A stretch of 64,000 bases of DNA, taken from Acinetobacter phage vB_AbaS-Bhz15. Below the pieces are notes generated by a model. It made no database searches and was not told the DNA's origin. It saw only the letters and a list, made by a program, of their open reading frames with translations. Position numbers and translations under genes: made by a program. Shown one piece after another: positions 14,949 to 18,826 of this stretch (position 1 is its first letter; each line of letters begins with the position of its first letter). The stretch lies in the sequence record PV067732.1. One strand, written 5' to 3'.

Positions 14949-17900
14949 TTATTCTATCCAATCAAAGCGAACAGTTTTTGTCTCTGGATTCGCATAGATT
15001 CTTAAATTGCCAATTTGTATCCAATCTCTGATGCGCATAGAATCAAAGACTGAACCATTGTTACTCATAGCGCCAATATCTTGTGGTAACGGCGGATGAT
15101 TGTTTGTAAACATTCTACCCCAGCCATCCCAGCGATTTGTTGCAGGATTCCATTGACGGGACCACATAGTTCCTGCAATATGTCCAGGAAGATTTGCTTT
15201 ATCTGCTGGCGGACGTGGCGCCCAAATTTGATATGTACCTGAGCCATTAGACGCAGATGATCCAAATTGAGACAACGTACCAGGTCCGTTGAATTCATCA
15301 TACTTATCATACCATGGTAGTGTAGCACCAGTTTCTTCATTTTTGGCATAGACACCTACAAGATACGGGCGCATAGTATTATAAATTGCAGGATCAGTAA
15401 TATCGATTGTCCATGTACCAAAGTTGTTAGAATTAGGTACAGCATTAGGCGTAGCCAAAGACTGAGGAATTGTAGCAGTAATAGGCTGGCTGACGTTTAA
15501 TCTACCAGTCATAGTGTCACCAGACTTCTTGACATATAATGGATCTAAAATCCCTGCACGATTTTTTGTTGTCATTACAGTATATACTGTGCCTGAATCC
15601 AAAGCTCGGATAAATGCAGCATCAGTTGCAATCAAGTCTAGACCGCGTGTAGTAGTACCTACTTTAGTTTGTCCTGAGACTGCCGTCAACGCATCAAATC
15701 CAGCAATTCGGAATCCGACAGAGTCTGTACTTACGATACCTGAAACATTTAGTGTGTTGTTTATTGTCGTCGCACCAACTACATTTAAAGTATTGTTGAA
15801 TTTAATTGCGCCGGAATGATGAATTTCATATGCAACAATGTCGATAGGACCTGGTTGAGCAGTAAGGTACTTATAGCCAAATTTAAGTGTAGATGATCCA
15901 ACACCATTAACGTTACCGTCGTGTATAGCGAATGCCCAAGCTCGAGGAGCTACAGCACCAGAAACCATACGCAGCTTGCCATTGTCTGTGTTAAGTGATT
16001 CACCTGAAGTTTTGCCTACTTCTAACATTTCACGTACGTCAACACGATCATTAAACAATGTAGGGCTAGTGAATGTTAAACTTCCTTCAACAGTCTGATT
16101 AATATCTCTACGGATGAACTGAGTAGAGTCAATTCCGTCTAATTTGTCAGAATCTACAGCCTTAGCTTTCAGCGGCATATAATTTACAAGAGTTTTATTC
16201 AACTCGTATGGCGAAATCGCATAACCTGTCTTAGCATAAGTCTCAACATCTGCTGTTGATCCAACCGTATCATTTCCTACAAATGTAATCGAACCGCTAG
16301 AGATTTTTACCGGACCACGCAAAGAAGCTGAAGCCTCCCAAGACGTCTCGACTTGTATTACTTGCTTTAAGTTTACTGGACATACAGCGGTAGTGCCAGA
16401 AGTTCCAGCTATAGTCTCTGCAGTATTAGCAATTCTAATAATACCTTCTGCAGCAGTTGTAGCCTTTTTAGCATGTAACTTTTTAGGAGTAACAACAGTG
16501 TTGTCATCAGTGCCGGCATTAACTTCAGTTTGAGTAGCTAATCGTGTTGTACCACGTTGTGTTTCAGTAGGTGCAACAATATCAAATGTTGTTGTAGTCC
16601 AAAGGTTGCCGGCCTGTGTCAAACCAGATGCGGCAACTACCGCAGTACGTGAAGGTGTAGACAAATATGCTTTAATTTTATCTGGGCCAGAGATTAGTCC
16701 TGCAGTGCCAGCATTAAACTCAGTTTGAGTTGCAAGTTTAGCAATACCAGTCAAAGCTTCTGTAGCTTTACGATCATTTAATGTTTTTGGCGTAACATAT
16801 TTAAAATAATCGGTGCCGGCATTAACTTCGGTTTGATTCGCAACCTGGGTAAAACCGATTCTACCATCTGTAGCAGTTTTTGTGTGCAATGTTTCTGGAG
16901 TAACAGCTAATGGGTACTTCGCTACTGATGCAGCACCAGAAATAACTTCAGCAGAATTTGCTAAGTACACTGTACCTAAAGCCATTTCTGTAGAATAAAA
17001 TTCTCTTAATGTTTTTGGAGTTACAATGTTCACATAATCTGAATGGTCATAGATGCCAGTACCAGCAGTATCTCGTGTATTTGTGCCATTTTTAACTGGT
17101 GCTACACCGCCAGCAGCAACGAGTTTTGCTACGCCTGCAAGATCTGTTCTTGCTCTACGCCCATCCAATTTCTTAGATGTAATAATTCTTGTGTCGTCGG
17201 TGTTGCTATCTGTTTCAGCTTGAGTAGCAATTTCAGCAAGACCACGCATAGTTTCGGTGGCTTGTTTTTGATTCAACTTGAGAGGAGTAACTATATCAAA
17301 ATCATTATAATTAGCGTCGTCGGTATTAAGTTGGTTCTGTGCCCTAGTTGAAATTTTAGCTATACCTTGGCGAGCCTCGGTAGCAGTTCTATTTGATAAA
17401 GTTTCAGGCGTAATAGCGACTTCTTTGGCTTCCGCTGTTATAACAGATTTATCTAAATTCGCTTGAGCTTGGGTAGCTAATGCAATGACACCTAATCTTC
17501 CACGTGTTGAATCTGTTGAAGGATCTACACGTTCTAATGCAGGAAGACAGTCGACCATTAACCACTGCTTAATAGGCCCCATATCAATGTATGCAAACTT
17601 AATCACAGGTGGATAATCGCTATTGCCATTATATGACAAAATGTTGGTATTGACCCAATTGCCATCAGGTGGATAACTCGAACGTTTAGGGAACTGTGTA
17701 AGATTTTTATTAGTCAAAATCATATCAGTCCCTTTAGGGACGATATTAACTGTTTGAGCCTTGCGCATATAATTCAATGCAATAGTGATTTGGTCACCAG
17801 GTTGCACATTATCAGGCAAAGTCAATTTAATTGTTTGCGCAGTTACGTTATCTTTGCCGACTACTGTGACAGTTTCATTAGGGAACAAATCAGTATCAGT

Positions 17901-18092
17901 ACTAACAGTTCGTAGTCGATCTACTGTATCTGTGTCAAAAAGTACCCAAGTAGATGACGAGCTATTGTAAATAAAATAACCACTTAGTGAACGATAGAAT
18001 ATCTCTCTGTGGATACCTGGAGACATTATGCTTGTATTAGAATCAAATGTGTTCAATTCTAGATGATAATATGGTACTGAATTTTGATTCAT
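14949..18092 (-). CDS. 34: long tail fibre proximal subunit gp34, C-terminal 1047-aa portion (gene split or frameshifted)
   Basis: Matches the T4 gp34 central and C-terminal regions (NYMRKAQTV..., FPKRSSYPPDGNWV, RGRLGVIALATQAQAN, and repeated ...TPETL..RTATE...GIAKIAT motifs). Its start ATG overlaps the stop of the upstream ORF (ATGA). Confidence 0.85.
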   Translation of the reverse strand: MNQNSVPYYHLELNTFDSNTSIMSPGIHREIFYRSLSGYFIYNSSSSTWVLFDTDTVDRLRTVSTDTDLFPNETVTVVGKDNVTAQTIKLTLPDNVQPGDQITIALNYMRKAQTVNIVPKGTDMILTNKNLTQFPKRSSYPPDGNWVNTNILSYNGNSDYPPVIKFAYIDMGPIKQWLMVDCLPALERVDPSTDSTRGRLGVIALATQAQANLDKSVITAEAKEVAITPETLSNRTATEARQGIAKISTRAQNQLNTDDANYNDFDIVTPLKLNQKQATETMRGLAEIATQAETDSNTDDTRIITSKKLDGRRARTDLAGVAKLVAAGGVAPVKNGTNTRDTAGTGIYDHSDYVNIVTPKTLREFYSTEMALGTVYLANSAEVISGAASVAKYPLAVTPETLHTKTATDGRIGFTQVANQTEVNAGTDYFKYVTPKTLNDRKATEALTGIAKLATQTEFNAGTAGLISGPDKIKAYLSTPSRTAVVAASGLTQAGNLWTTTTFDIVAPTETQRGTTRLATQTEVNAGTDDNTVVTPKKLHAKKATTAAEGIIRIANTAETIAGTSGTTAVCPVNLKQVIQVETSWEASASLRGPVKISSGSITFVGNDTVGSTADVETYAKTGYAISPYELNKTLVNYMPLKAKAVDSDKLDGIDSTQFIRRDINQTVEGSLTFTSPTLFNDRVDVREMLEVGKTSGESLNTDNGKLRMVSGAVAPRAWAFAIHDGNVNGVGSSTLKFGYKYLTAQPGPIDIVAYEIHHSGAIKFNNTLNVVGATTINNTLNVSGIVSTDSVGFRIAGFDALTAVSGQTKVGTTTRGLDLIATDAAFIRALDSGTVYTVMTTKNRAGILDPLYVKKSGDTMTGRLNVSQPITATIPQSLATPNAVPNSNNFGTWTIDITDPAIYNTMRPYLVGVYAKNEETGATLPWYDKYDEFNGPGTLSQFGSSASNGSGTYQIWAPRPPADKANLPGHIAGTMWSRQWNPATNRWDGWGRMFTNNHPPLPQDIGAMSNNGSVFDSMRIRDWIQIGNLRIYANPETKTVRFDWIE

Positions 18093-18826
18093 GCAACAAA
18101 GTGAATAATATCACCATTATTAGCGAATTTTGGGAATGTCAACACAATAGGCGCAAAGCGATCATAATTACGAATAATTGTTTCACCTGATTGAACACGA
18201 ATTGGTCCCCCTGGTACAACTGTGCGAGCCACAGGTGCCTCGTCGCCGTCGAATAATGACCATTGCTTCTTCGTATAAACAAATGTCCACTCAGAAAATG
18301 GAATAGTCATACGTTTTTGTGGGATGCTTGCGCCTTTATCAATAATAGATTCAACAGGGGCAATAACAATAACAGAAGTATACCCAGTCAAGCCGCCAAT
18401 ATCTTTAATGGAAATAGTGTCGCCTTCTTGTGGTGCTGGGGATGTTGGTAAAGTTAATTCTACGTCTAAACCTGCACGTGTATCAACAGAAATATAATCA
18501 CCAACTTTTAATTGATACTTGCCAGAATCAAATGGGTACCATTTAGGGTCGGTACGCAATGGCTTCCAGTAACCTTCAAAGAATGTTCCTGCTGGTTTAG
18601 CAATATTTTGTTCGGCCATCCAAAGGCGACCGTTAAATTCTACAATAAATCCTTTCTCATATGCACGAGAAGGATCATATTGTTGGGTTGTGTTTTCTTG
18701 GATGAGGTATTCAACGTTTACACCATCAGTCATGACAGTTTTGTCAGCTTTTGCTACATTGATTACTTTTTCACCGGCTGCGTCCAACCCGTATGACGCA
18801 CGGAAACTTGTTTTTACTTCAGACAT
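18089..18826 (-). CDS. 34: long tail fibre proximal subunit gp34, N-terminal 245-aa portion
   Basis: FRASYGLDAAGEKVINVAKADKTVMTDGVNVEYLIQENTTQQYDPSRAY, ...PKFANNGDIIHFV matches T4 gp34 residues 1 to about 250. It terminates with a TGA that overlaps the ATG of the next ORF. Confidence 0.85.
   Translation of the reverse strand: MSEVKTSFRASYGLDAAGEKVINVAKADKTVMTDGVNVEYLIQENTTQQYDPSRAYEKGFIVEFNGRLWMAEQNIAKPAGTFFEGYWKPLRTDPKWYPFDSGKYQLKVGDYISVDTRAGLDVELTLPTSPAPQEGDTISIKDIGGLTGYTSVIVIAPVESIIDKGASIPQKRMTIPFSEWTFVYTKKQWSLFDGDEAPVARTVVPGGPIRVQSGETIIRNYDRFAPIVLTFPKFANNGDIIHFVA

Follow-up and report, generated by a model that had tools for sequence, protein, structure and literature searches.

A split gene 34 in a T4-like Acinetobacter phage, very probably the result of a recent one-base lesion in a single proximal tail fibre gene

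The long tail fibres of T4-like phages include a proximal subunit, gp34, which is encoded by gene 34. In T4 this protein is a homotrimer, bound to the baseplate protein gp9 via its N-terminal P1 region, and both in T4 and in all other homologues it is a single polypeptide. The copy described here is found on a 64,000-nucleotide stretch of phage DNA (record PV067732.1; this whole stretch is called the window below), in the genome of a T4-like Acinetobacter baumannii phage belonging to Hadassahvirus (Straboviridae, Twarogvirinae). Here the gene is broken at residues equivalent to T4 243–245, and it is read as two open reading frames (ORF1 and ORF2) that are joined by an ATGA stop/start overlap. 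The gene is a known one, with a lesion that is private to this genome. There is strong reason to believe that this is a very recent one-base lesion at codons 244–245 splitting a single gene 34, and not a two-subunit design. As far as the sequence can tell, a consensus error and a mutation in the sequenced stock, later than its divergence from the closest known relatives, are about equally probable as the cause.

The closest relative in the phage collection is AbTZA1, with 98.2% nucleotide identity across gene 34. In all 13 records that are at least 90% identical, the gene is 3879 nt long, as compared to 3878 nt in the window, and all of them except one, Morttis, have a single annotated coding sequence (CDS). 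For the Hadassahvirus relatives AbTZA1, AB-Navy71, Maestro, Minot, DLP3, PhT2 and vB_AbaM_MU1, nucleotide identity in gene 34 is 90–98.2% and the flanking genes are identical, but these phages have one CDS and the letters GTAGGY where the window has two ORFs and GTTGC. A comparison with close relatives had been proposed in the initial annotation of this locus, and its outcome is a continuous gene that is one nucleotide longer than the one in the window. Because the relatives carry such a gene, a two-subunit design is unsupported. The same picture is seen further away. When records were matched using 400 nt around the junction, one CDS was found to bridge it in 63 of 63 Acinetobacter phage records. 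A tblastn search with a 440-amino-acid query spanning the junction gave coverage of at least 80% at a single place for 1,423 of the 1,475 phage records, and among the matches listed every row shows a single piece.

A further comparison can be made by coordinates alone. Table S3 of PMC12930573 places gene 34 of phage vB_AbaM_MU1 (GenBank PX093057) at 18845..14967, which is an intact gene of 3879 nt. The coordinates of MU1 ORF1 to ORF11 in the same table (1..2208 to 8335..8856) are identical to those in the window, which opens with the first base of rIIA. The offset between the two is then +18 nt past gene 37 and +19 nt past gene 34, stays constant at 19 up to 51.7 kb, and becomes −775 nt beyond the homing-endonuclease gene that adjoins uvsW. 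By these coordinates MU1 and the window are related and nearly collinear, and the window would be the beginning of a genome that opens at rIIA and differs very little from MU1. The same publication reports that phage vB_AbaS-Bhz15 is 99.4% similar to MU1 (PMC12930573).

The lesion itself is small. Where the relatives have CAY TTT GTA GGY ATG AAT, the window has CAC TTT GTT G-C ATG AAT. The simplest decomposition is that one G of the GG pair was lost, together with a private A>T change (GTA>GTT) that is synonymous in Val244. In an alignment of gene 34 from nine genomes the only gap column in the window is found here, and the private substitution is in the neighbouring column. The deletion and the A>T change are probably one single event or one single miscall, since the chance of an unrelated substitution adjoining the deletion is less than 1%. 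Apart from this, the gene has 11 private substitutions in 3879 nt, of which 8 are synonymous and 3 are conservative (K274R, I428L, S438T). There is no sign of gene decay in these, and practically the whole of the private branch is older than the lesion. In the proposed course of events, the loss of one G in GTA GGC with the adjacent synonymous A>T would have shifted the reading frame by −1, and the shifted frame would then have run into a TGA that overlaps the internal Met246 codon, leaving two ORFs joined by ATGA.

In the ORF listing, both ORFs are on the minus strand. ORF1 has 245 amino acids with the C-terminus ...NGDIIHFVA, and ORF2 has 1047 amino acids with the N-terminus MNQNSVPYYHLEL. 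The letters at the junction are ...cac ttt gtt gcATGAatcaa..., where the ATG of ORF2 (18092–18090) overlaps the TGA of ORF1 (18091–18089). Coordinates, lengths and the ATGA overlap are all as the initial annotation described them, and the frame change is −1 as it stated. Its remark that no residues are lost is almost exact: ORF2 starts at the native Met246, but the native Gly245 has become the C-terminal Ala of ORF1. At the amino acid level, ORF1 is 99.6% identical to residues 1–244 of AbTZA1 gp34, and ORF2 is 98.7% identical to residues 243–1292. If the gene were intact or recoded, the peptide spanning the junction would be ..IIHFVGMNQNSVPYYH...

There is little about the locus, other than the break, that would set it apart from gene 34 of T4 (gp34 in PDB 9x3r, 5nxh and 4uxe). 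PHROG 972, the profile for the tail fibre protein proximal subunit, is matched across the break by the two ORFs together, with ORF1 covering profile positions 1–242 (E 2.6e-99) and ORF2 covering positions 248–1246. The intact AbTZA1 orthologue can be aligned end to end with full-length T4 gp34 (PDB chain 9x3r_M; residues 1–1292 versus 1–1289, 1038 bits), and in this alignment the break falls at T4 residues V243/D244/L245 (..GDIINFVDLDKLN-PLYH..). The seamless T4 homology that had been claimed across the break is therefore borne out. The Gp34_2nd domain (PF21560) is present in ORF2, the gene order rnh-34-35-36-37 is as in T4, and the AAGGA in front of gene 34 is at a position where the records of AB-Navy71, Minot and Maestro have an annotated ribosome-binding site. 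In other words, the homology, the domain and the synteny of gene 34 are all found here, and an uninterrupted ORF of about 1290 codons is not. Judged by these features, the locus is an ordinary single-gene proximal long-tail-fibre subunit, the orthologue of T4 gene 34, with 1292 codons. The features are collected in Table 1.

Table 1. Coordinates of gene 34, its lesion and the surrounding features in the window
Feature	Position	Strand	Details
ORF1	18089..18826	−	gp34 residues 1–244 plus a non-native C-terminal Ala, then TGA; ~27 kDa
ORF2	14949..18092	−	gp34 residues 246–1292; ~113 kDa; begins at the conserved internal Met246 codon
Lesion	18094..18097	−	GTA GG(C/T) in relatives, GTT G-C in the window
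ATGA stop/start overlap	18089..18092	−	ATG is the Met246 codon; TGA only in the shifted frame
Shine-Dalgarno-like AAGGA	18833..18837	−	7–11 nt before the start codon of gene 34
Module A	18227..18529	−	gp34 residues ~100–200; beta-rich repeat unit of ~100 amino acids (hhalign)
Module B	17922..18226	−	gp34 residues ~201–302; frameshift cuts after the GD-I-I-H-F-V strand, at about position 44 of ~100
Module C	17544..17921	−	gp34 residues ~303–428; third copy
Pfam Gp34_2nd (PF21560)	15108..15437	−	ORF2 residues 886–995; 90.3 bits versus a cut-off (gathering score) of 27
RNase H (rnh)	19082–20149	+	synteny
gp35	13809–14939	−	synteny
gp36	13049–13750	−	synteny
gp37	8885–13033	−	synteny

Termination followed by reinitiation at ATGA overlaps is known from bacterial and phage operons, and in T4 rIIB reinitiation after nonsense codons is classical. 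In the window, stop and start would also be on one mRNA, and a restart is mechanistically possible. What sets the overlap apart from coupled gene pairs is that it falls within a single ancestral gene, that it is not conserved, and that it has no Shine-Dalgarno sequence. The ATG is the codon for Met246, which was there before the lesion: all intact Acinetobacter relatives have FVGMN at this place, the letters ATGAAT are common to all intact relatives, and the TGA is just the stop that comes next once the frame is shifted. No Shine-Dalgarno sequence is found 5–12 nt upstream of the ORF2 ATG in ttattcactttgttgc, where there is only a GGTGA some 18–22 nt upstream, and the AGG that the relatives have upstream of this ATG is removed by the lesion. 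To judge how often such an overlap is expected, every possible one-base deletion was simulated in the repaired gene 34. An ATGA-type overlap with an in-frame ATG is created in 12.3% of the cases, an overlapping or abutting stop and start in 16.9%, and an ATG at most 10 nt from the new stop in 20.4%. The overlap is incidental and not above chance expectation, and nothing in the arrangement is evolved. This is at odds with the initial annotation, which took the overlap as the signature of translational coupling. A conserved two-gene arrangement was not encountered in the relatives or the metagenome contigs searched.

Signals for recoding were looked for as well. Both frames are open together over no more than 7 codons between the flanking stops (T ATT ATT CAC TTT GTT GCA TGA), a stretch that has no slippery heptamer of the type X XXY YYZ. 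In 111 nt around the junction no stimulatory RNA structure is evident, with a minimum free energy of −16.6 kcal/mol (z = −0.45 versus shuffles). A conserved frameshift site was not found either, as the relatives read a single frame, and the T4 late-promoter motif TATAAATA does not occur inside gene 34. The earlier view that programmed −1 frameshifting is unlikely for want of a slippery heptamer fits with these results.

The position of the break within the protein is also of interest, as the initial annotation had it coincide exactly with a domain boundary. In an alignment of eleven N-terminal gp34 sequences of diverse origin, from phages of Acinetobacter, Escherichia, Salmonella, Enterobacter, Klebsiella, Aeromonas, Serratia and Citrobacter, the break site is inside a motif that is well conserved among them (LP+FAN-GD-I-x-F). 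Profile-profile comparison with hhalign shows that residues 97–195 and 202–300 are homologous to each other (93–94 columns, hhalign probability 95–97%, E 4.5e-10 to 3.5e-8). At about residues 303–428 there is a third copy, which has diverged further (hhalign probability 84–88%; modules A versus C, E about 1e-6), and negative controls with the first 99 residues gave E values of 0.5–0.8. Pairwise BLASTP of these putative internal repeats is not significant, and it takes profile-profile comparison to see them. The N-terminal region of gp34 would, on this comparison, be made up of a head of about 100 amino acids and three modules of about 100 amino acids each. This fits with the four pseudo-domains into which the P1 region of gp34-like fibres is divided in PMC12143355. 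Residue-level borders of gp34 domains were not found in the passages of the literature that were searched, where maps of the T4 long tail fibre exist, but without residue numbers.

It follows from the phase of the repeat that the break (244/246) is at about position 44 of a module of about 100 residues (202–300, homologous to 97–195), and so it probably falls in a loop inside a module and not at an inter-domain boundary as was first proposed. An AlphaFold2 model of a junction-spanning homologue (P0002), built from an alignment of three rows, has a low mean confidence (pLDDT 51.8) and is usable for module A only, where the block-mean pLDDT is 62–87. In module A of this model, which is of low overall confidence, the point equivalent to the break comes after the third of nine strands. 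It can be added that the modules at 17544–18529 share the pattern G-x-x-I...L-T-L-P-x5-G-D-x-I...W-x-L-F-D, that they can be detected across Straboviridae by profile-profile comparison, and that there is no Pfam model for them.

Three explanations had been put forward in the initial annotation: a two-subunit fibre, a very recent frameshift, or a sequencing error. The last two stand, while the first, as an evolved design, does not, given that the relatives are intact. An evolved two-gene architecture, or a programmed −1 frameshift that is conserved in the phage group, has nothing in its favour other than the ATGA overlap and the fact that the residues are exactly preserved. It is not conserved in the 63 Acinetobacter relatives or in about 1,400 other T4-like phages, the near-collinear MU1 is intact, and the overlap window of 7 codons has neither a slippery heptamer nor an RNA structure. 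This explanation is effectively refuted. Much closer to an even chance, although somewhat short of it, is a consensus or assembly error, which is one form of the recent one-base lesion favoured here: the phage DNA would be GTAGGC, miscalled as GTTGC, and the phage would make a normal gp34 of 140 kDa. Gene 34 is essential in T4 and it is intact in every relative, the two adjacent private differences resemble one local miscall, and the break is in the middle of a module in the baseplate-proximal part of the fibre, where a restart would have no Shine-Dalgarno sequence. The group also has other split fibre genes that resemble assembly artefacts, such as the one with a 55-nt duplication in Morttis. 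Some findings do speak against the lesion being a plain sequencing error. About 75 AbTZA1 genes were mapped onto the window, and all but gene 34 keep their frame; no further frameshift is seen in the rest of the 64 kb. Versus AbTZA1, six one-base indels were counted in about 60 kb; the five besides that in gene 34 are all intergenic, and three of these five are common to AB-Navy71 or DLP3. The site is a GG pair and not a long homopolymer. Versus MU1, going by its coordinates, the net length changes in the first ~51.7 kb are −18 nt in gene 37 and −1 nt in gene 34, both of which are long-tail-fibre genes. Isolated consensus indels are moreover rare in Illumina/SPAdes data of good depth, as used for the nearest relatives described, MU1 and Bhz15, and this would count here if the window is linked to either record. 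The clean assembly thus argues against a generally error-prone sequence, and it is quite possible that the mutation is a genuine one in the stock.

If the deletion is real, there would be one late transcript with both ORFs, and ribosomes translating ORF1 would stop at the UGA. A fraction of them may restart at the AUG one base upstream and make residues 246–1292; this reinitiation would be the only route to the downstream product, and the fragments would have 27 kDa and 113 kDa. The question is then what becomes of the fibre. A plain null mutation is at odds with the essential role that gene 34 has in T4, and also with the stop falling exactly where reinitiation is possible. A genuine null, where the stock or most of its genomes have no proximal half-fibre, the fibres being dispensable on the propagation host or complemented at high multiplicity of infection, is rated as unlikely. 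Without its fibres T4 is all but non-infectious, unless gene 9 is mutated as well; a defective allele seldom becomes the consensus, and the other private substitutions in gene 34 show purifying selection. What can be said for a null is that the clean assembly supports a real deletion, that gene 37, likewise a long-fibre gene, has another private length change (18 nt deleted in frame), and that another route has been reported in Twarogvirinae, where acapsular hosts are infected through CarO by means of a second receptor-binding protein (bioRxiv 10.1101/2025.07.10.664161). Slightly less probable again is a real mutation with a functional gp34 in two pieces. In this case reinitiation at the AUG would supply the second piece, and the two fragments would assemble non-covalently in module B into a working trimeric half-fibre, with the 27-kDa N-terminal fragment bound to the baseplate protein gp9 and the 113-kDa C-terminal fragment as a piece of the shaft. 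The stop/start overlap, the otherwise native sequence of both fragments and the precedent of reinitiation in T4 rIIB are in line with this, as is the clean assembly, an argument for a real loss of the base. Going by the homologous module A in the AlphaFold2 model, the cut may be in a loop after a beta-strand. A viable frameshifted stock would need a rescue, and with a restart available in about 12–20% of random deletions there is a modest survivorship signal. Against two pieces are the missing Shine-Dalgarno sequence 5–12 nt before the AUG, the cut inside a repeated module instead of between modules, the low confidence of the model outside module A, and the fact that the arrangement was not found in the relatives or metagenome contigs searched.

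For annotation, this means that the two ORFs should be described as one gene 34 with a frameshift (as a pseudogene or with a note on the sequencing) instead of as two fibre proteins. Should the deletion be real and fixed in a viable stock, with the half-fibre built from two polypeptides, nature would have demonstrated that gp34 tolerates scission of its backbone in the P1 region, and this would be a case of tail-fibre gene fission captured in the act. A deletion that is real in an infectious stock would also bear on the question whether gp34 can be assembled from two chains, and on reinitiation independent of a Shine-Dalgarno sequence in a T4-like A. baumannii phage. Phages of this group are used therapeutically, and the integrity of the long fibres bears on host range.

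The split allele was also looked for in larger collections. The frameshift allele was not found in IMG/VR or in the metagenome contigs of JGI, where the intact allele was found. In a collection of 15 billion proteins neither the exact ORF1 product nor the exact ORF2 product is present, and no recorded contig encodes the ORF1 product. Exact look-ups of gp37 and of the ORF at the gp38 position in the same collection gave no match either. The exact gp35 product of the window matches only AB-Navy71 and one Logan contig; gene 34 is intact in both, and the copy on the contig is identical to that of AB-Navy71. These look-ups brought up no second, independent assembly of the phage. A homologue search with ORF1 yielded only two metagenome fragments. 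One ORF1 homologue (P0001) was considered as a second case of a split gene, and was rejected as a chimeric scaffold end. It is a Marfa-like gp34 fragment on an ENA metagenome scaffold (JIEZ17-1 scaffold_19391, 1205–1307). The homology stops just past GDMITF, near the break point of the window, and the continuation is unrelated and G+C-rich, which points to a coincidence.

In Morttis (MW388004), a close relative, gene 34 has likewise been deposited as two CDS. The cause is a different one here, namely an imperfect tandem duplication of 55 nt near the 3' end (gene position 3725–3779, record position 5225–5279). As 55 is a common assembler k-mer, this duplication may be an assembly artefact. Morttis and the window are independent lesions or artefacts, with no shared architecture.

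There are a few other differences between the window and its relatives. In gene 37 (window 10690–10700, minus strand) six codons (LGNQTE) are missing through a private in-frame deletion of 18 nt between TTAGGTA direct repeats. This segment is kept in AbTZA1, AB-Navy71 and DLP3, and gene 37 of MU1 is 18 nt longer. The ORF at the gp38 position (8335–8856, plus strand) is about 32% identical to that of AbTZA1, and gp37 is 84% identical, compared to 99–100% for the flanking genes; at 522 nt its length is the same in AB-Navy71, DLP3 and MU1. From these identities, the region of gp37 and the gp38 position looks like a swapped host-range cassette. A homing-endonuclease ORF of 263 amino acids (51753–52541, minus strand) adjoins uvsW (52541–54052). 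It is also present in AbTZA1 (gp160), and judging by coordinates it is absent from MU1, with a shift of about 794 nt. Conversely, AbTZA1 has a homing endonuclease, gp123, and an ORF located between genes 19 and 18, gp172, for which the window has no counterpart.

Finally, two compensating homopolymer changes are found at 49234 and 49246, in the intergenic region between the divergent baseplate genes 51 and 26. Here a run of four T has become five (T4>T5) and a run of five A has become four (A5>A4), 12 nt apart, which differs from both AbTZA1 and AB-Navy71. The pair is beside back-to-back TATAAATA motifs (49209–49220). In the whole window this T4 late-promoter core has no copy inside or immediately upstream of gene 34. 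In total it occurs 15 times versus 7.8 expected, a number that is reached in 0 of 100 shuffles, and several of the copies form overlapping divergent pairs.

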